Virus record (IMG/VR): IMGVR_UViG_3300046721_000269
Source of the DNA: an uncultured virus (IMG/VR IMGVR_UViG_3300046721_000269)
Lineage: Duplodnaviria; Heunggongvirae; Uroviricota; Caudoviricetes
Length of the DNA stretch: 64,000 bases
Strand: one strand, 5' to 3'
Positions 13,512 to 50,841 of the stretch are shown one piece after another (positions within the stretch are counted from its first letter, which is position 1; each line of letters begins with the position of its first letter). The notes below the pieces were generated by a model. It saw only the letters and a program-made list of their open reading frames with translations, was not told where the DNA came from and ran no database searches. Made by a program: the position numbers and the translations under genes.

Positions 13512-14285
13512 ATGCGAAACGCGGAATGTGCTCTTTGGGCGTTACGGCAGCGGGTCGGACGCGGAAGCGACAAGTTAATACTCGCGGTCCTGGCCAGCTT
13601 CTCGGACGATAAAATGCAGGCGTGGCCATCACAGAGCACCATTGCACTCGAGGCGGAGGTTGACATAAAAACGGTCAGTATGGGGCTGCGGCGCATAGAG
13701 GCTGCTGGACTGATCAAACAAGTCGGCACAGTAGGGCTAGGGACTAAGGTTTGGAAGCTGCTTCAGCGGGTAGCGCCACCACCGGAAACGGTGGACGATT
13801 ATGTACTTACTTCTATACCTGTTAATAAGGAAGGGGGTACGGGGGAAACCACAAAAACCACACAGGCCGAGTTGATTCCCAGGCCAAGGAAGGACAGGGG
13901 CACGCTCGAGGATGTTCAAAAGCTCTGCCTGGAACTTGGATTGCCCGAATCCGATGCCACATGGTTCTTCTACAAGTGTGAGGGCTGCGGATGGGTAAAC
14001 GCGAAGCAGCCGATCAAGGATTGGAAAGCGACAATTCGAGCCTGGAGGGCTGGCGGATTTTTCCCGAGCCAAAAGACCAACGGCGCGAGCAAACATTTCT
14101 CTGAGACGGACGCCCGCCGACGCGAGCAGATGGCTCGGAGTTCACAAGTACCACTAACCACGAAAACCGTTATGAGATATGGAAAGGGTCAAAACAATGG
14201 ATCCGGAGAAACTAACAGATGCGAGAGTACCCCGCCGTTACCGGGAACAGATACAGGGACACCAGGGCCAGGGACCGTGGCATGA
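13512..14285 (+). CDS. replication initiator, N-terminal winged HTH
   Basis: KLIL..LA...D....WPSQ.TIA......TV...L..LE.AGLI; C-terminal GW...IKDWKATIR.W; precedes DnaC-like gene. Confidence 0.75.
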   Translation: MRNAECALWALRQRVGRGSDKLILAVLASFSDDKMQAWPSQSTIALEAEVDIKTVSMGLRRIEAAGLIKQVGTVGLGTKVWKLLQRVAPPPETVDDYVLTSIPVNKEGGTGETTKTTQAELIPRPRKDRGTLEDVQKLCLELGLPESDATWFFYKCEGCGWVNAKQPIKDWKATIRAWRAGGFFPSQKTNGASKHFSETDARRREQMARSSQVPLTTKTVMRYGKGQNNGSGETNRCESTPPLPGTDTGTPGPGTVA

Positions 14286-14757
14286 CTGCGGCAGAGACTT
14301 CTTTCAAAGGCTCGGCAAGAAAGGCGTCCTGCTCGCGGCCATCGGCAAGAGCGGCGTGGGCAAAACGCAGCTTGCGGCCAACATCATTTACAACGTGGTG
14401 CGGCATACCGGAAGGTCCTGCCTCTACACGACCGCTCGCGACTTTTTCCTCGACCTCAAGGCGTGCTACCGCGCCGACGGGGAGCCTGAGCGGGAAGTCA
14501 TTGGGGAGTACTGCAAACCATCGTTCCTCGTCATCGACGAGTACGACAAGCGAAGCGGAAGCCAGTGGGAGGACGGAATGCTCGAGCACGTTATCAACCG
14601 CCGTTACGGCATGATGAAAGACACGATGCTCATAGCCAACTACAGCCAGCCGGCATTTGAAGAGGCGCTCGGGCCGGCCAACCTCTCGAGGTTGAACGAG
14701 GGCGGGCTCATGGCGGTATGCGACTGGCCAAGTTTCAGGGAGGCTGTGTGTGGCTGA
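14179..14757 (+). CDS. DnaC/IstB-like ATPase (helicase loader)
   Basis: GKSGVGKT, LVIDE, INRRY, SRL.E, W.SFR. Confidence 0.85.
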   Translation: MERVKTMDPEKLTDARVPRRYREQIQGHQGQGPWHDCGRDFFQRLGKKGVLLAAIGKSGVGKTQLAANIIYNVVRHTGRSCLYTTARDFFLDLKACYRADGEPEREVIGEYCKPSFLVIDEYDKRSGSQWEDGMLEHVINRRYGMMKDTMLIANYSQPAFEEALGPANLSRLNEGGLMAVCDWPSFREAVCG

Positions 14758-16127
14758 TCCCGGAGAAGCTGGCCCGACCCTGGTTAGCCTGTGTCGCGGG
14801 GTCGGATTACTCGACGAAGCCGTTAAACTGGTTTTTCCCGGAGCAACGACTCTATGTAGCGCGGAGTGGGAAAGCTACGCCAACGCCGTGTACCTGGCGC
14901 GGATGGAAGAATCGAGCGTGGACGCCCATCCTATTTGGATCGGAGATATTGCCGACCTCGAGCTTTCCGCGCTTCGTCGCCTTGTCTATATCCTCTGCGC
15001 GAGCCTCCCTTGCACGCCGTTCAGTTATGCCGGACTACGCACCGGAAACGACGATCCTCGAGCTTTTGGAGATGGCAGCGGACCAGCTCGACATTGTCTC
15101 CGGCTCATTGCCGAGTGTTGCCCCGCCCTGGTGTTCTTCGAGAACGCGCCAGCTTGGGTTAGAGGGCTTAGGGACAAGCGAAGCGGAAAAATCAACTATC
15201 CGTTCCTGGCTTTCGGAGCGGAATTATGCGGAATGGGTTACGAGCTCGTTGAACCGGTCTTTATCTCTGCGGACGATGTTAAAGGAGCGCACGAGCGCGA
15301 AAGAGTCTTTGTGCTGGCCTACCGCCACGGCCCGGATGGACTCCGGTGCAAACAATCGTTATCAGCGTGGCTGCGAGAAGGCAGGCAGGCAGTTGCAGGA
15401 AGAGGCGGCGAACTGGCAGACCCCGCGATCCAACGAGGCGGGAAACTTCACCAGGGATCACGGGGTACCGGGAATGGAACGGGACACGCTCTCGGGCCAG
15501 TCGGAGAAGTGGGCGACCCCGGACGCGCCGACGGGCGGCAGCAGGACCAGGAGCGACGAGGCGATGCAGCTGGGGCTTCACGGAACGGGAGCCAAGATGC
15601 AGGTGACACTGCAGGACCAGGCCAGCCGCTGGTCGACGCCCAGGGCGAGCGAGGGCGGTCCGGACTTTGCGAAACCGGAGCGGAGCAACACGGGGATGGG
15701 CTTGCCGGCACAAACGGCGAATTGGCCGACGGTCACAACAATGGACGGGGAGCAGGCCGGCGGGAGGGGCAGGAGGGAAAACCGGGGCAAGACAACACTC
15801 AGCCTCGAGACGGAGAACTGGCCGACGTGTCAGGCCAGGGACTACCGGAGCGGGGAGACGCGAAAGGACTACGGAAACTCCCGACCGTTGACGGAGGCAG
15901 TCCTCGAATTTTCGCTCCAGGGCCAAAAGATCCCCGATGGCAAGACATCCTCGAGTCCTGCCCGTGGCTCGCGCCCGCGGTTAAACCCGGCTTTCGCGTT
16001 ATGGTTGATGGGCGCCCCATGGTTCTGGACGAGGCCCGAATCGATCAGCTTCGGTGCACAGGTAACGCAGTTGTGGCAATTCAAGGCGCGTGTGCTCTTG
16101 TGGAGCTTCTTCGGAGAGCCGGAATAG
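14748..16127 (+). CDS. overlapping alternative-frame partner of the C5 MTase (WxTP repeats + motif IX)
   Basis: 1.4 kb open frame; six W[PQAS]T repeats; RLNPAFALWLMGAPWFWT; GTG 14748 shares the RBS with GTG 14750. Confidence 0.7.
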   Translation: MWLIPEKLARPWLACVAGSDYSTKPLNWFFPEQRLYVARSGKATPTPCTWRGWKNRAWTPILFGSEILPTSSFPRFVALSISSARASLARRSVMPDYAPETTILELLEMAADQLDIVSGSLPSVAPPWCSSRTRQLGLEGLGTSEAEKSTIRSWLSERNYAEWVTSSLNRSLSLRTMLKERTSAKESLCWPTATARMDSGANNRYQRGCEKAGRQLQEEAANWQTPRSNEAGNFTRDHGVPGMERDTLSGQSEKWATPDAPTGGSRTRSDEAMQLGLHGTGAKMQVTLQDQASRWSTPRASEGGPDFAKPERSNTGMGLPAQTANWPTVTTMDGEQAGGRGRRENRGKTTLSLETENWPTCQARDYRSGETRKDYGNSRPLTEAVLEFSLQGQKIPDGKTSSSPARGSRPRLNPAFALWLMGAPWFWTRPESISFGAQVTQLWQFKARVLLWSFFGEPE

Positions 16128-16132
16128 CATGA
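14750..16132 (+). CDS. DNA cytosine-5 methyltransferase, alpha-type polypeptide (motifs I-VIII, X)
   Basis: SLCRGVG (I), LPCTPFSYAG (IV), FFENAP (VI), HERERVF (VIII), CTGNAVV (X). Confidence 0.8.
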   Translation: MADPGEAGPTLVSLCRGVGLLDEAVKLVFPGATTLCSAEWESYANAVYLARMEESSVDAHPIWIGDIADLELSALRRLVYILCASLPCTPFSYAGLRTGNDDPRAFGDGSGPARHCLRLIAECCPALVFFENAPAWVRGLRDKRSGKINYPFLAFGAELCGMGYELVEPVFISADDVKGAHERERVFVLAYRHGPDGLRCKQSLSAWLREGRQAVAGRGGELADPAIQRGGKLHQGSRGTGNGTGHALGPVGEVGDPGRADGRQQDQERRGDAAGASRNGSQDAGDTAGPGQPLVDAQGERGRSGLCETGAEQHGDGLAGTNGELADGHNNGRGAGRREGQEGKPGQDNTQPRDGELADVSGQGLPERGDAKGLRKLPTVDGGSPRIFAPGPKDPRWQDILESCPWLAPAVKPGFRVMVDGRPMVLDEARIDQLRCTGNAVVAIQGACALVELLRRAGIA

Positions 16133-17556
16133 GACGTCAAGCGTCCGAGCCGTCACCGGACCGATTGCCGCCGAACTCACCAGAGGCGGAAGAATCGGCC
16201 CTGGGGTGCATTCTGATGGACGAAAAGCGCTCAGTGGAGTGCATCAGTCTTTTCGTTGAAAAGTTCGGTCCGAGCGCGCCGGATGCCTTCTACGACATGC
16301 GGCGCCAGACGATTTGGACCGCGATGCTCGAGCTTTACACGGCCGGGATCCGGGTCTACGTCATCAGCCTTGTCGATTATCTGCGAGACAAGCAACTGCT
16401 CGAGCAGGTCGGCGGGGTGGTTTACATTGCGCAGCTCGCGGACGTGTCCCCATCACCGGAAGCGCTGCCGACCTTCATTGATATCCTGATTGAGAAGCTG
16501 AGGCGCCGGCAAATGATCAAGGCCTGCGTTCAGGCCGTATCAACGCTCTACGAGGACGCGGAGGCGGACAGCGCCATGGACACCGTTGAGCGGTCCGTGA
16601 TGGAGGTCCGCAAAATTGGCGCAGCGGGACAACTGAAGCCGATCAAGGAAGTAGTTCAGGGGGCGATCGCGAGGATTGAGGACTTCCACCAGCGCAAGGG
16701 CATGCTAGTCGGGCTGTCTACCGGGTTTGCCGACATCGATAAAATGACCGGCGGGCTCGAGAATGGGACTTACAACATCATCGCGGCGCGCCCGAGCATG
16801 GGCAAGACCTCCCTGGCAATGAACATCGTTGAGCACGTGGCGATCGATCAACAGCTCTCGGTCGGAGTATTCAGCCTGGAAATGACGGTTGAATCGTTGG
16901 TGATGCGGATGCTTTGCTCCCGCGCCCGCGTGAACCTGCGCAATGTCCGTGACGGGTTCCTGGCCGAGCGGGACTTCCCGAAGCTCACCGGAGCGGCCGG
17001 CAAGATTGCCGTGAGCAACCTTTTTGTGGATGACGCCAACGGGCTCAGTGTGATGGAGCTGAGGGCTCGAGCGCGCCGGATGAAGATCCAGCACGGCATC
17101 AAATTATTAGTGATAGATTATGTGCAATTACTTATAGCCACGGTGAACGGCAGGAGGCCTGATAAGCGCGAGCGGGAAGTCTCCGAGGTTTCAGCCGGCA
17201 TCAAGGCACTTTCGAAGGAGCTCGCGATCCCGGTCCTGGCGATATGCCAGCTCAACCGCGAAATCGACCGCGCCAAACGAAAACCCGTCCTGGCGGACCT
17301 GAGGGAAAGCGGGAGCCTCGAGCAGGATGCAGACCTTGTTGGCATGTTGTACCGACCGCAAATCGACGATGAAAACAGAGAGCAAGATGAAGCTACGCCG
17401 GTGTGCCTGGACATAGCCAAGCAGAGGAATGGGCCTTCCGGTGAAGTCAAGCTGACCTTCCTCAAACCCTACACTCGGTTCGAGTCAGCGGCCAGGGTGA
17501 GTGACGAGGACATGCCAAATGACCAACAACACGACCTTGACTACCATGAGCGGTAA
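16129..17556 (+). CDS. dnaB: replicative DNA helicase DnaB
   Basis: PPNSPEAE, AARPSMGKT, FSLEM, IDYVQL, QLNRE, DLRESGSLEQDAD, AKQRNGP. Confidence 0.95.
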   Translation: MRRQASEPSPDRLPPNSPEAEESALGCILMDEKRSVECISLFVEKFGPSAPDAFYDMRRQTIWTAMLELYTAGIRVYVISLVDYLRDKQLLEQVGGVVYIAQLADVSPSPEALPTFIDILIEKLRRRQMIKACVQAVSTLYEDAEADSAMDTVERSVMEVRKIGAAGQLKPIKEVVQGAIARIEDFHQRKGMLVGLSTGFADIDKMTGGLENGTYNIIAARPSMGKTSLAMNIVEHVAIDQQLSVGVFSLEMTVESLVMRMLCSRARVNLRNVRDGFLAERDFPKLTGAAGKIAVSNLFVDDANGLSVMELRARARRMKIQHGIKLLVIDYVQLLIATVNGRRPDKREREVSEVSAGIKALSKELAIPVLAICQLNREIDRAKRKPVLADLRESGSLEQDADLVGMLYRPQIDDENREQDEATPVCLDIAKQRNGPSGEVKLTFLKPYTRFESAARVSDEDMPNDQQHDLDYHER

Positions 17557-19132: not shown

Positions 19133-19360
19133 ATGAGCGTCCCGATAGAGAAAATCACCGAGGAACGGCTGGCCCGATGGAAACGGCGCATGAAGGAATC
19201 GCACGCTACGCCGATCGTCCTGATGGGCGTGGGGCACGATCACAAATGCGGTGAGATTGTGGTCTGCATCCCTGAGGACGTGGATAATGCGCTTGTCCTG
19301 GCCACGCTCTGCTTTGCGGTCGAGCAGCTCGCCCCGGGCACAATCCGGAAAGCAACGTGA
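19133..19360 (+). CDS. hypothetical protein
   Basis: 75 aa, GTGA overlap with next gene. Confidence 0.55.
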   Translation: MSVPIEKITEERLARWKRRMKESHATPIVLMGVGHDHKCGEIVVCIPEDVDNALVLATLCFAVEQLAPGTIRKAT

Positions 19361-20688
19361 TCATTCCCCACAAACTTCTTGGAGATGCCCGAGCCAAACT
19401 TGCCGAGCTGCCGGAGAACTCTTTCCAGCTCTGTGTGACCAGCCCCCCCTACTGGGGCTTGCGCTCCTACCTGCCGGCCAATCATCCACTAAAGCATTTG
19501 GAGATTGGGACCGAGGACACGCTCGAGCAATACCTTGCCAACCTGGTCGAAGTGTTTACCGCGGTTCACCGGGTGCTCCGAGACGACGGGCTTTTGTGGG
19601 TGAACATGGGGGACCGCTGGACGGCTGGCTCGCGCCGGCAATACGATCGGTGCGCCAAAATCATGGGGCGGGATGAGAAGCATCCGGCCAACGGAGTGTT
19701 TCGCCCGATGGACCCGACCGGGCTCAAGATTAAAGAGCTGTGCTTGCTCCCTCAGCGCGTAGCGATCGCCCTGCAGGAGTCCGGCTGGTATCTGCGTTGC
19801 ATGTGCCCCTGGATAAAGCGCAACTGCATGCCTGAGAGCGTTAAGGACCGGCCAGTCAATGCGCTCGAGTATTTCTTCATGTTCTCAAAGCAGCGGTTCT
19901 ACTACTACGACCGAGACGCAGTGACCGTGCGGGCCTCGGACAACACGCACCCCAGGGCCGCGGTTTTCCCGCACAGAGAGACGCGCAACGACAATAACCG
20001 GAGACGCCGGCGGACAAACCCTAAGGCGGCACTGGCTCAAATCGGGGTGAAACAAAACCCCTCCTTCCAGGAAGCGACGAGCGACTATCTTCCGAGCCGC
20101 CGGAACTGGCGCAACACAGACCTGTTCATGCAATCGTGGGAGGGCCTGCTTGGGGACGAGAACGGGGACCCGCTCGCCCTGGTGGTAAACCCAAAGGGGA
20201 CCACGATGAGTCACTACGCGAGTTACCCGGTTTCGCTGATACGGCCAATCATCCAGGCGTCCACGTCGGAGGGCGGTTGCTGCTCGAACTGCGGGGCGCC
20301 GAGAATAAGGGTCGTAGAGGTCGGGGAGGCGGACATCGAACGCCAGCGCCAGTGCGGAGGCGACCTCCTGGGCGAATATCACGGCCAGGCCAAAAAAGAC
20401 TTCAAAGGGAACGGGGTTCAGGACGCCAGCGACGTTAAGCGGCGGATACTGGCCGGCATGCGCGAGCGTAAGACGGTCGGATGGAACCCAGGATGCACGT
20501 GCGATCGGGATCAAATGTGCTCGCTCATATCGAAGCCATGCTCAGTGATCGACCCATTTCACGGGACGGGCACAACCGCGCAAGCCTGTGTTGAGCTGGG
20601 GCGCCACTACACCGGCATTGAGATTTCCGAGGACTACTTCAAGGACTCGGACCGAAAAGACAGCCAAACTGCACTATCGATCGTTTAA
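19357..20688 (+). CDS. DNA N4-cytosine/N6-adenine methyltransferase (beta class)
   Basis: VTSPPYWGLR, HYASYP, DPFHGTGTT, GIEIS; Cys-rich insert. Confidence 0.9.
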   Translation: MIIPHKLLGDARAKLAELPENSFQLCVTSPPYWGLRSYLPANHPLKHLEIGTEDTLEQYLANLVEVFTAVHRVLRDDGLLWVNMGDRWTAGSRRQYDRCAKIMGRDEKHPANGVFRPMDPTGLKIKELCLLPQRVAIALQESGWYLRCMCPWIKRNCMPESVKDRPVNALEYFFMFSKQRFYYYDRDAVTVRASDNTHPRAAVFPHRETRNDNNRRRRRTNPKAALAQIGVKQNPSFQEATSDYLPSRRNWRNTDLFMQSWEGLLGDENGDPLALVVNPKGTTMSHYASYPVSLIRPIIQASTSEGGCCSNCGAPRIRVVEVGEADIERQRQCGGDLLGEYHGQAKKDFKGNGVQDASDVKRRILAGMRERKTVGWNPGCTCDRDQMCSLISKPCSVIDPFHGTGTTAQACVELGRHYTGIEISEDYFKDSDRKDSQTALSIV

Positions 20689-34171: not shown

Positions 34172-35740
34172 CTACAACGAGGCGATAAGGCCCCCGGATG
34201 ATGAGCGGGACCCTTCATTCCCGATGCTTCCGAGCTCGAGCTCTTCAGCCATCTCCATCAGTAGGGCGTAGGTAAGCGCGTCGAAAATATGCTTGTTCTC
34301 GTTGTGAACAACGTAGTCCAGGCTGGATCCGCCACTCCCCTTCTTGAGCTCCTTCAACATCCGGATGACCCCGCGGCAGTGGGCGGAGATATGGAATCGG
34401 TTATTGTGCAGCAGGTTTTTCAGGAGCTGCACCCTGGTACGGACGGAGCCGGCGGGCTTTGGCGCCCCGCGGAGGAAGATCCGCTTTTGGCTGGCCGCGT
34501 AGACCTCAAGGTAAGGGTAGGTATCCCCCGTGGCTGAGTATTTTTCGATGCTCGAGCGGTCGGACCAGGCGCGCTCAAGGTCGAACTTTTTGCCGGCATG
34601 AGCCTCGAGGCCCTCAACCTTCTCCATAACGGCCAGGGTGAAATCCTCGTTGCTGACTTCCTCCCCGAGGACCTCGACCTCGTCCAGGACGATAAAATGA
34701 GCTTTCCCGTTGACGTACTGGCGCTCAAGTGTGACCTGCGCATGCCACGTATCCCCCATGTCCCAACCGGTCACGAGCTCAAAGCAATTCGGGGAGGGAT
34801 TAGCGACAATCCATTCCTCCTCGGAGCCTTCGGTGGACCCGATCACGTGCTTACTGGGGTGGAAGTGCTTTTTGAAGTGGACCGACGTGTCTCCATCGCC
34901 ATAGACCCATTTGCCCTCGACGTAGCGCGCGTACAGGCCCTCGTCATAAGCGTAGGTTGTCTTTAGCTCATCCAGCTCCCGCGGATCCAGGAACTCGTTT
35001 TCTTCCGGCTTGATTTGGACCAGCCCCAGGCCGGCCTGGAAATTAAGGAAGAGCTGCTCGGGAAGGCTCGGTCTGCCGCGTTCCTTGCACCGGTCGGAGT
35101 ATGCCTGATAGCTGAGGTTTTTCTCCACATACCAAACCTCGTAGATCCAGGACGCATCTCCCTCCTCGCTCGGGTTCGTGTCGGCAAGCCATTGCTGCTC
35201 CTCCATCATCAGGTGAGGCATACGCAGTGATGGCAGGGCGACCGAGAGGATCTTGCGGTCCCGGAATTTGGACAGCTCGGAGAAGTAAATCATCGAGAAA
35301 CGCTGCTCCTTCAGCTTGTCCTCGATATCCGGATCGTAGTCCAAGCTGAAGAGCATCAGCTCAGATTGCCCGCCGTGCGCGTTCCTTATCCGGAAGTATG
35401 GGGTCCGGGTCTGACCGTCGACTTTCGGGCCCGGGACGCCTTCCGCGCTGCGCGTTGTGTAGCGCAACCCGATTTTGGCCTTAATCCACTCCGGCAAAAC
35501 AATCGTGTGAAGGTCTGACCAGGTCCCGCCCTCCTTTGAATTCTTGAGTGTGCGCGAAAACATCGCCACTCGGGCACCCCTGGTTTCCCAAAGGTGACGG
35601 ACTATTTTATGCAGGACAGCCCAGGTTTTACCGCTCTTTCTCGGACCGTCGACCAGGAGGGCGCGGGCCATGGAATTGAACACCATGAGCTGCTTCGCGA
35701 ACAAGTTTGGATACCAGCGACCGGTAGCGTCTATAGGCAT
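34172..35740 (-). CDS. terL: terminase large subunit
   Basis: GPRKSGKT, YFSEL (atypical Walker B), DTNP, RYVEGKWV, GWDMG, HIFDALTY. Confidence 0.85.
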   Translation of the reverse strand: MPIDATGRWYPNLFAKQLMVFNSMARALLVDGPRKSGKTWAVLHKIVRHLWETRGARVAMFSRTLKNSKEGGTWSDLHTIVLPEWIKAKIGLRYTTRSAEGVPGPKVDGQTRTPYFRIRNAHGGQSELMLFSLDYDPDIEDKLKEQRFSMIYFSELSKFRDRKILSVALPSLRMPHLMMEEQQWLADTNPSEEGDASWIYEVWYVEKNLSYQAYSDRCKERGRPSLPEQLFLNFQAGLGLVQIKPEENEFLDPRELDELKTTYAYDEGLYARYVEGKWVYGDGDTSVHFKKHFHPSKHVIGSTEGSEEEWIVANPSPNCFELVTGWDMGDTWHAQVTLERQYVNGKAHFIVLDEVEVLGEEVSNEDFTLAVMEKVEGLEAHAGKKFDLERAWSDRSSIEKYSATGDTYPYLEVYAASQKRIFLRGAPKPAGSVRTRVQLLKNLLHNNRFHISAHCRGVIRMLKELKKGSGGSSLDYVVHNENKHIFDALTYALLMEMAEELELGSIGNEGSRSSSGGLIASL

Positions 35741-49461: not shown

Positions 49462-50841
49462 ATGGGTGCAATCGGCGGGATCATTAGAGCAGCAAGCGGA
49501 CCCCCGAGCTATTCAACAATAAGCTCGGTGAAGAACCCCGCCCTTCAGGGCGCGATCGATACCTCGATTAGCGGACTACCCCAGCTCCAACGCGGGGTAA
49601 ACGCCGGGTTAGACACCTTCACGCGGGATTGGAATGCGGCCACTCCCCAAGTAGCTGCTGAGACAGGCCAGGAAACCAACGCCATCGGCCAGTTCTACAA
49701 CGGGCAAATGGCGAGCCAGCTCGCGCAGCTCAGAGCATCGCGTCAGGGGGCAGTAAACGCCGCGGCCAACGTGGCGACCCAACAGGCTTTGGCCTCTCAG
49801 AACAGGTCCAGGCTTACCGGCTCCGGCGGATTGGGGAGCTACAATCAGCGCCAGACGATCGCCGCGCTGCAGCCGATCCAGGTTCAGGCCGCGCTCGAAA
49901 ACGAGAACCAAAGGCGGTCGGACCTCGGCTACCTGACTCAAAACCAAGTGGGTTTGGCCGGTACACGGGAGTCTCTTCAGAATCAGCTTGCAGGGCGCTC
50001 ACTCGTGCCAGGGCAACAGCGGCTCGCGACGCTCGGCCAGGAAAACCAGTACATGAGCGGTCTGACAAACCTCGACCAGGCCAACAAGTTTTACGGGCTG
50101 CAGAAGTCCCCGAATATGTGGGCGGACGTTGCGGACTCACTCGACCAGGGTGTTCTCAATGCCGCATCGATATATTCCTCGATGGGGACCCCCGGAATGG
50201 GGCACAAAGAGGGCGGACTTATCCGCGGCCCGGGTACCGGGACGTCCGACTCGATACCTGCACGCCTGTCAAAGGGCGAATTCGTTGTCCCGGCGGACGT
50301 GGTCCACATTCCCGGTGTGCTGCCTCTCCTCGAGAAGATGAGGCACTTGCACAACATGCACCACGTAAGCCGACATCAGGAAGGACTCAAAGTCTACCTG
50401 AACCAGATGAAGCGCGCCAAGGCGACCACAACGGGGACGGGGACCGCCAAGATGGCCAGTGGGGGATTGGCCGGCGGTTACGGTGGGTTCGGGGGCGGAG
50501 GCGGCGGCGGTGGGGGCGGTGGGGGACTTGCCGGCTCGGCTCAGCAGCTCGGCGCCAGGGTCGACGCGGATCTTCAGGCGCAGTGGTTGCCACCTACCAT
50601 TCTTCCGACGGATGGCGGAGTGGGCGTAACGGCTCCTGGCGGAATGGGACTTGGCAGGCCGCGCGCCACAGCAATGCCGTCGGGCGGAGTCGGAAGCGGC
50701 GGCTTTGAACAATCTCCCTACCTCAACATGAGCAACTGGGAGGGAGTGCCAAACGAGTGGCGCAGTTACGCTAACGCAATGGCTGAGAAGTACAGCAACC
50801 CCAATAGCCCGCACTACATCAAACCGGGCACTTACGAGTAA
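49462..50841 (+). CDS. internal virion / DNA ejection protein
   Basis: Gln/Gly/Ala-rich; GGLIRGPGTGTSDSIPARLSKGEFVVPAD motif. Confidence 0.7.
   Translation: MGAIGGIIRAASGPPSYSTISSVKNPALQGAIDTSISGLPQLQRGVNAGLDTFTRDWNAATPQVAAETGQETNAIGQFYNGQMASQLAQLRASRQGAVNAAANVATQQALASQNRSRLTGSGGLGSYNQRQTIAALQPIQVQAALENENQRRSDLGYLTQNQVGLAGTRESLQNQLAGRSLVPGQQRLATLGQENQYMSGLTNLDQANKFYGLQKSPNMWADVADSLDQGVLNAASIYSSMGTPGMGHKEGGLIRGPGTGTSDSIPARLSKGEFVVPADVVHIPGVLPLLEKMRHLHNMHHVSRHQEGLKVYLNQMKRAKATTTGTGTAKMASGGLAGGYGGFGGGGGGGGGGGGLAGSAQQLGARVDADLQAQWLPPTILPTDGGVGVTAPGGMGLGRPRATAMPSGGVGSGGFEQSPYLNMSNWEGVPNEWRSYANAMAEKYSNPNSPHYIKPGTYE

Follow-up and report, generated by a model that had tools for sequence, protein, structure and literature searches.

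A probable two-chain phage cytosine methyltransferase encoded in two fully overlapping frames

Introduction

How can one piece of phage DNA hold, divided between two frames, what in some relatives is a single enzyme? The question is raised by positions 14748 to 16132 of a 64,000-nucleotide (nt) stretch from an uncultured virus (IMG/VR record IMGVR_UViG_3300046721_000269; Caudoviricetes), termed here the window, where two frames of the same strand, called alpha and beta, begin 2 nt apart. The core of a DNA cytosine-C5 methyltransferase (motifs I, IV, VI and VIII on a Rossmann-like fold, with I and VI in variant form) is present in alpha. No one chain has all ten motifs of such enzymes, motif IX being in the beta frame. 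The answer that we consider highly probable is that the locus specifies an orphan two-chain C5 methyltransferase that would work like M.EcoHK31I, the Escherichia coli enzyme recognizing YGGCCR for which both an alpha and a beta chain are reported to be required (PMC2836561). Both frames exist and are conserved, and the substitution patterns detailed below demonstrate selection on both.

The features of the locus are as follows.

14737-14743, plus strand: Shine-Dalgarno (SD)-like AGGGAGG, separated by 4 nt from the beta GTG that follows and by 6 nt from the alpha GTG
14748-14753, plus strand: paired start GTG-TGG, i.e., the beta start and Trp2, the Trp2 bases supplying the alpha start GTG-G at +2
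14748-16127, plus strand: beta chain, 459 amino acids (aa), GTG at 14748 and TAG at 16125-16127; N-terminal arm, six units, motif IX and C-terminal helix
14750-16132, plus strand: alpha chain, 460 aa, GTG at 14750 and TGA at 16130-16132; motifs I-VIII, filler at residues ~218-385, conserved C-terminal block and motif X
14748-15314, plus strand: beta N-terminal half (residues 1-189), overprinted on alpha motifs I-VIII
15008-15013, plus strand: catalytic Pro-Cys, motif IV of alpha, invariant in 92/92 aligned alphas
15315-15908, plus strand: six beta units, starting at 15315, 15414, 15510, 15630, 15723 and 15819; alpha is stop-free filler here
15978-16031, plus strand: motif IX block of beta, R411-T428, sequence RLNPAFALWLMGAPWFWT at residues 411-428
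16043-16108, plus strand: motif X of alpha, D432-L453, sharing its DNA with the C-terminal helix of beta; both frames conserved

Two open frames and an interlocked start

The initial annotation, made from the letters alone, had singled out GGGAGG, then ctgt, then GTG codons at 14748 and 14750, and two frames open for ~1.4 kb with ends 5 nt apart (16127 and 16132). All of this is read directly in the sequence, with ctgt as the spacer between AGGGAGG and the beta GTG at 14748. The frames are co-extensive over 1380 nt, the third frame has many stops, and the locus is the window's longest same-strand double-open stretch (1429 nt versus 1044 nt for the next). The openness exceeds chance: with the partner protein fixed, its log10 probability is -2.95 for the alpha middle and -1.9 for the beta N-terminal half, the latter figure being too strong as the null predicted about twice the stops seen (267 versus 116 in 44 control genes).

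Is the double openness shared? A beta alignment, with the motif IX block as the only search pattern, brought 219 loci, which with four named records made 223. Removal of 24 duplicates and one locus lacking the pattern left 198, and in 111 of them, the window's own sequence included, motif I could be anchored, the others being cut at contig ends or missed by the motif I pattern. From motif I to IX/X alpha is open in 109 of the 111 and beta likewise in 109; the two are open together in 107, and the third frame never is. Approached from the other chain, with an alpha profile built from the anchored beta-found loci, 80 new loci were obtained, 65 of them scorable, and the beta N-terminal half is open in 62 of these. 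Cultured phages share the two-frame layout, as does a relative that is 69-70% identical.

Is the pairing of the starts then a local accident? A beta start of the form M-W or M-x-W near the alpha start, with the Trp codon spelling the alpha start, is present in 107 of 110 loci, one mis-anchored locus having been dropped before the count. As the rule sought that very pattern, only its frequency and the base it leaves free count as results. The alpha-frame codon is GTG in 77, ATG in 21, TTG in 6 and CTG in 3. For the M-W loci (n=67) the GTG is automatic, and for the M-x-W loci (n=40) a free wobble base yields ATG 21, GTG 10, TTG 6 and CTG 3, which is unusual in GC-rich genes. An alpha-frame start codon stands at -4, +2 or +5 relative to the beta start in 107/107, an in-frame stop comes immediately before the beta start in 32 loci, and relatives have a purine-rich element upstream, with an SD-like 4-mer in 86 of 107, mostly 4-9 nt before the beta start. 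With a looser pattern, full-overlap loci selected through alpha have an ATG-type M-W or M-x-W start in 64 of 80. Because the paired start and the start-making free base recur across relatives, the interlocked start is supported as a family trait, and what had been noticed as two starts served by one ribosome-binding site becomes a conserved feature. AGGGAGG would be that ribosome site. An in-frame ATG at 14718 could lengthen beta by 10 aa; it was rejected as the start, relatives beginning at the W2 position. Does start choice set the ratio of the chains, as was proposed? Start choice governed by SD spacing, and re-initiation or coupling at the upstream stop, would be equally good accounts, and the alpha start shifts among relatives (-4, +2, +5).

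Selection on both frames

The comparison partner here was a relative at ~70% identity (L002/L005). Its differences from the window fall mostly at alpha wobble positions in the N-terminal part (61 versus 32 and 23) and mostly at beta wobble positions in the middle part (75 versus 30 and 25), and there are few at any codon position in the C-terminal part. Four-fold sites differ at 105 of 164 in neighbouring genes (dnaB 56/93, dnaC 21/29, a DnaJ-like gene 28/42), whereas in alpha the figures are 17/52 for the N-terminal part, 6/54 for the middle and 6/23 for the C-terminal part, and in beta 1/30, 31/66 and 0/15, respectively. Within the gene, 5/5 strain variants (run X7) are silent in beta and all alter alpha, a count that leaves out 7 differences on the divergent contig 16.

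What keeps the alpha frame open across the units? In 47 loci chosen as doubly open, 258.8 alpha stops were expected in the units region and none was seen, and in control contexts of that region T at the wobble position was as expected (853.6 expected, 862 seen). T wobble is missing from the beta middle exactly where alpha would gain a stop and is normal elsewhere.

For the beta N-terminal half (conserved residues G41, K42, W58 and L62) the evidence is of other kinds. Alpha Pro61 is CCT (beta Leu62) in 40/44 and in at least 23/35 overlap genes, versus 3 of ~20 listed non-overlap genes. The beta N-terminal half is read as being under moderate selection of its own, real but more loosely constrained.

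The alpha chain

Profile searches made frame by frame find PF00145 and phrog_29583 in alpha and phrog_1008 in beta. PF00145 matches alpha at residues 11-194 only (E 1.7e-16, 61 bits versus a cut-off of 22), phrog_29583 over 12-459, and TIGR00675 at 43.4 bits, under its whole-protein cut-off of 100.65. M.HhaI is the best alpha match by both profile and fold. The motifs that had been assigned to alpha (I, IV, VI, VIII and X) were all located: motif I is SLCRG, a C-for-F variant, motif IV is PC87-88, motif VIII is R183-x-R185 and motif X includes GNAV at 438-441. A pattern search of the alpha frame did not find the motif IX pattern. The AlphaFold2 model of alpha has the M.HhaI fold, with the predicted local distance difference test score (pLDDT) <50 at 218-341 and 343-385. 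The variable region of alpha is filler, as had been thought, to judge from its being unconserved, predicted disordered and evolving as a shadow of beta wobble. Beyond it comes a conserved C-terminal block, FAPGP...PA.EPG.R..DG.

The beta chain and its units

Both elements previously ascribed to the other frame, six WxT repeats and the LNP..WLMG.P block, are in beta. It is matched by phrog_1008, 'DNA methyltransferase' (E 2.7e-11), has 82 database proteins as relatives, beta itself counted, and no Pfam or NCBIfam family matched it. ESM Atlas matches are unnamed viral clusters, one of them auto-named DNA (cytosine-5)-methyltransferase, which is a lead only. In 92 betas L412, N413, P414, F416, W419, L420 and M421 of the motif IX block are invariant, an invariance partly imposed by the search pattern, and in most loci motif X comes 77 nt past motif IX in the +2 frame.

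The units are at W190, 223, 255, 295, 326 and 358, three of them W-x-T-P and three W-P-T-[A/V/C], of ~31 aa with the consensus L-x6-W-[PA]-T-P-x-A-x-D. Relatives have 2-8 units each, 407 in all in the 92 betas. Between proteins, 865 pairs of unit cores are at least 55% identical; of these, 336 link proteins <40% identical in the N-terminal half, an identity that is alignment-based and possibly understated, and 253 of the 336 are at different rank. Within one protein the units differ (1 of 777 pairs alike). Unit 2 of the window's beta is a member of a 13-member type and the other five are common only to L014 within the set. This behaviour is what is expected of exchangeable modules, and the units would thus be cassettes passed between phages.

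Are they multiple target-recognition modules, as the initial annotation suggested? The finding of six distinct tandem modules between motifs VIII and IX makes that plausible, and the units are likened to target recognition domains (TRDs) because of their cassette-like behaviour and their position where a TRD sits. On the other side, few of them fit the TL consensus, PT(ILV)(TASV) in PMC2413257: 346 of the 407 read T/S-P and 13 read T-[ILV], only one of the six units here (WPTV) has a TL motif, and the complex model described below gives the units no confident placement. The single-unit nested relatives L390 and L406 read PTL.

As to targets, k-mer depletion in the window indicated no target sequence. 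By both-strand counts CAGCTG (4 versus 59.9 expected) and AAGCTT (0 versus 29.8) are under-represented in the window, as are ACGCGT, GTAC and CTAG, a scarcity consistent with restriction-site avoidance.

Layouts among relatives

A sample selected by motif IV only comprised 80 viral loci with flanks, reduced to 67 by the dropping of 8 duplicates and 5 unanchored loci. It contains 18 genes with full overlap, 12 with a nested beta, 9 single-frame, 5 AquI-like, 5 truncated and 18 unresolved, by a regex that classes imperfectly (inspection showed L237 and L377 to be in the wrong class). By these counts this methyltransferase group has several layouts, of which full overlap is a common one. In the single-frame L229, and in the viral L319, L323 and L409, motifs I-VIII, L-P-T-P units, the LNP block and motif X are in one chain; in the one frame of L229 the alpha profile matches 7-202 and 325-387, and the beta profile 247-357. 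Because the LNP block occupies the place of motif IX before motif X in such single-frame relatives it is taken to be motif IX, an assignment that also leans on the general motif IX consensus. Six high-GC single-frame genes (L313, L314, L316, L317, L321 and L326) have an alpha-filler-like middle running into IX and X; their units, if any, would be out of frame.

Broken two-frame copies also occur, with frameshifts in L084, L085, L086, L087, L125 and L167 and single stops in L133, L146 and L175. In L084, L086 and L125 a single frameshift brings motif IX into the frame of the alpha N-terminal half. The broken copies may reflect errors of sequencing, decay or transitions from one layout to another.

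Annotation is mostly of one frame, beta in Acidovorax phage Alfacinha1 and alpha in phi1026b and Yong-M2-251. In the first of these (L010, 1984-3117) it is beta, not the catalytic frame, that GenBank calls a cytosine methyltransferase. In phage phi1026b (L009, 2481-4601), and in L053, L058 and L069, beta continues in frame through a ParB-like gene to a total of 704-739 aa, and may be fused to a ParB-like domain; the database proteins P0063 and P0081 (~706 aa, PF17762) show the beta plus ParB-like form. The two top-scoring beta relatives from prokaryote genomes, L174 and L179, come from Verrucomicrobia assemblies (E 6e-50 and 1e-42), which hints weakly at the host group.

Do the two chains fit together?

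The alpha plus beta complex model has an ipSAE of 0.88, the best of three controls having 0.00, and the mark applied is reached by 116 of 157 solved pairs and by 2 of 215 mismatched pairs. Runs agree on at least 54% of contacts, with partner pLDDT at least 53. In the modelled interface beta 407-455 would lie on alpha 381-456, against motif X and the C-terminal block, and N-terminal stretches of beta would touch the catalytic domain; none of the confident contacts involves the units. The proposal of a two-chain C5 methyltransferase is supported by conservation, dual selection and the single-frame relatives; the structure model, which points the same way, may reflect likeness only.

A number of observations weigh against the two-chain proposal or its parts. 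Split-gene halves tend to pass such a complex test through their likeness to solved single-chain C5 enzymes, and because of this the complex score is a measure of likeness, not binding. Beta alone folds poorly (pLDDT 54.9, predicted template modelling score 0.25), has no match in the PDB by fold or sequence, and no Pfam family is common to the 92 beta members. Alpha has ENA as motif VI, where 46 of 47 relatives have ENV, and T in place of Q after the catalytic Cys. Of the relatives 4/111 have a stop, and there are the frameshifted ones besides. The alpha codons account for much of the similarity among beta N-terminal halves, as their shadow: a +1-frame excess is also present in non-overlap controls (0.26-0.27 bits per column, versus 0.38 in overlap genes selected through alpha and 0.69 for the close set). 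In 6 of 19 single-frame genes the +1 frame is open by chance, the six all having GC at least 0.68. Because the flank-codon null overstated stops about twofold and the controls have an excess, the case for the N-terminal half rests on the column contrasts and the within-genome comparison.

Alternative explanations

Could there be two chains with beta short, as in M.EcoHK31I, starting internally near the units, the open N-terminal half being a by-product of alpha codons or a translation lead-in? Nested betas are common (the 12 of 67 above), shadow similarity is present in control genes, in-frame start codons occur within beta, and M.EcoHK31I beta is reported to be able to restart at internal methionines (PMC2836561). 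Yet the M-W start is conserved at the alpha start, codon fixation at P61, E41, R40 and L57 is specific to overlap genes, silent sites of the alpha N-terminal part are constrained relative to neighbouring genes, there is no clear SD ahead of the listed internal starts, and the predicted complex puts the N-terminal arm in the interface, so that a short beta is considered unlikely. An enzyme consisting of alpha only, possibly of relaxed specificity, with beta serving some other role or no role, is quite improbable: alpha's conserved C-terminal block could replace part of the small domain and most records annotate one frame only, but the conserved block of beta is exactly at the motif IX place of single-frame relatives, the alpha variable region has the disorder and shadow-like evolution already described, and M.EcoHK31I alpha by itself is reported to be inactive (PMC2836561).

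The order of the motifs along the DNA is canonical and single-frame versions exist, as they would if two programmed frameshifts gave one chain, from alpha I-VIII into beta for the units and IX and back to alpha for X. Such decoding needs openness of neither the alpha middle nor the beta N-terminal half, yet both are maintained; both frames are conserved either side of the would-be junctions; and the three slippery-like heptamers (at 14868, 15440 and 15775) are off the junctions needed, the one at 15440 not being conserved in the relative. With no conserved slippery site at the junctions, double frameshifting was rejected and we rate it very improbable. Least probable, and barely credible, is an artefact or decay, i.e., an assembly frameshift or a dead gene, for which the broken relatives and the variant residues in motifs IV and VI might speak. 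The contigs of 4/4 runs over the locus have no indels, including any that would merge the motifs into one frame, the comparison being of assembled contigs, not raw reads, and one of the four runs possibly being the source of the record. The X2 contig, which may be that source, covers the whole stretch unchanged, and the X4 contig is unchanged across it except for 15045-15103, which it leaves uncovered. An assembly frameshift was rejected on this ground, and against decay stand the layout shared with the 69-70% relative and cultured phages and the purifying pattern of the strain variants.

Known two-chain and multispecific enzymes

The likeness to M.EcoHK31I is one of described layout; no record of that name was among the matches listed in plasmid searches. 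As in M.EcoHK31I (PMC2836561, PMC3404938), alpha has I-VIII and X, and motif IX belongs to a second chain, which a different frame of that DNA encodes. Unlike M.EcoHK31I, whose smaller beta is contained within alpha and whose TRD is placed in alpha, the locus has a beta of 459 aa that begins 2 nt ahead of alpha and itself carries the TRD-like units, and the alpha variable region is filler. The locus is also an orphan within a phage replication module, and M.EcoHK31I we take to be part of a restriction-modification pair. Because two described features fail (the small nested beta and the TRD in alpha) it is filed as a variant of the M.EcoHK31I type.

M.AquI (CYCGRG) is a C5 methyltransferase of two polypeptides (PMC3404938), and as there two chains complete one enzyme, with the distal variable region and motif IX in the second. 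Its alpha ends in the variable region and motif X is in the small chain, whereas motif X here is in alpha, for which reason the locus is not of AquI type; relatives with an AquI-like layout include mycobacteriophage Severus gp77/gp76. In Bacillus temperate phages the multispecific C5 methyltransferases consist of one chain each, and their TL-motif TRDs have proven specificity (PMC12707154, PMC2413257). Shared with these enzymes are several distinct tandem modules between VIII and IX, bounded by a conserved Thr-centred motif, and the status of orphan phage enzyme; the units here differ in being ~31 aa, mostly W-x-T-P, in an overprinted chain and of predicted function.

Has the full-overlap family been described? 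PHROG 1008 corresponds to the beta frame and PHROG 29583 to the alpha frame, both 'DNA methyltransferase' and catalogued as unlinked separate families. No description of a full-overlap phage family was found in the literature searched, with subscription journals, REBASE and supplements, which may bear on novelty, outside the search; under the terms tried the available parts of PMC3711429, PMC8788219, PMC8227390 and PMC6536676 do not mention it. The phage enzymes of ~700 aa with relaxed specificity in PMC5537653 and PMC3925955 were not linked to the present family. So far the design is proven for one E. coli enzyme only, where it takes a smaller form.

The neighbourhood and other features of the window

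The window is a segment of a tailed-phage genome, with terminase and virion genes farther along, and the methyltransferase is in its replication module.

13512-14285: replication initiator, flanking the methyltransferase locus
14179-14757, plus strand: dnaC-like helicase loader (phrog_50, E 3.7e-32; PF01695), stop TGA at 14755-14757, in the third frame
16129-17556, plus strand: dnaB helicase (PF03796, E 1.1e-89), its ATG sharing bases with the alpha stop (ATGA) and lying 1 nt past the stop of beta

The dnaC TGA thus sits 5-7 nt beyond the two methyltransferase starts. No restriction-enzyme family matched among the 12 and 18 window proteins scanned, for which reason the methyltransferase is treated as an orphan. 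A second orphan methyltransferase, of the N6/N4 class (PF01555, E 5e-36), is at 19357-20688 on the plus strand, with a long insertion and Cys pairs near its C-terminus. The 1044-nt double-open stretch, at 49662-50705 (plus strand), lies over a Gly/Ala/Gln-rich open reading frame (ORF; 49462-50841) with a tape-measure-like motif; no Pfam match was found in the frames tried, and it is probably a compositional shadow. The terminase large subunit (34172-35740, minus strand) is on the strand opposite to the long plus-strand ORFs either side of it.

A model and its meaning

How might the locus work? Ribosomes arriving from dnaC, or binding AGGGAGG, would begin at either GTG. Alpha would supply the S-adenosylmethionine-binding catalytic domain with motifs I to VIII as well as X, and beta the small domain that alpha is missing, namely the TRD-like units, which would read DNA, and motif IX. 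The N-terminal arm and C-terminal helix of beta would wrap alpha and so hold the dimer, and the alpha middle would be a spacer, stop-free solely so that translation gets to motif X. An active enzyme of this kind would probably protect phage DNA from host restriction by methylating it as it replicates.

As a natural example of dual coding and of start choice at one ribosome site, a conserved overlap of 1.4 kb on one strand, with products that would be subunits of the same enzyme, is unusually clean. The layout looks common among phage C5 methyltransferases, yet records hold one frame only; specificity predicted on the basis of annotated proteins would then be taken from the wrong chain, and the partner chain could be lost if the annotated frame were recoded or were cloned by itself behind a vector start. 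A wider proposal, held tentatively and at somewhat less than an even chance, is that there is a widespread, unannotated class of multispecific phage methyltransferases in which the specificity subunit is overprinted on the catalytic one, with one ribosome site and exchangeable modules of ~31 residues, whose length changes would be in multiples of three because both frames must remain open. If that is true, the recognition part of M.EcoHK31I-like enzymes would be in beta, not alpha. And if the units are target modules, they would amount to a library, provided by nature, of small DNA-recognition cassettes that can be swapped, and for phages to a route to broad anti-restriction.

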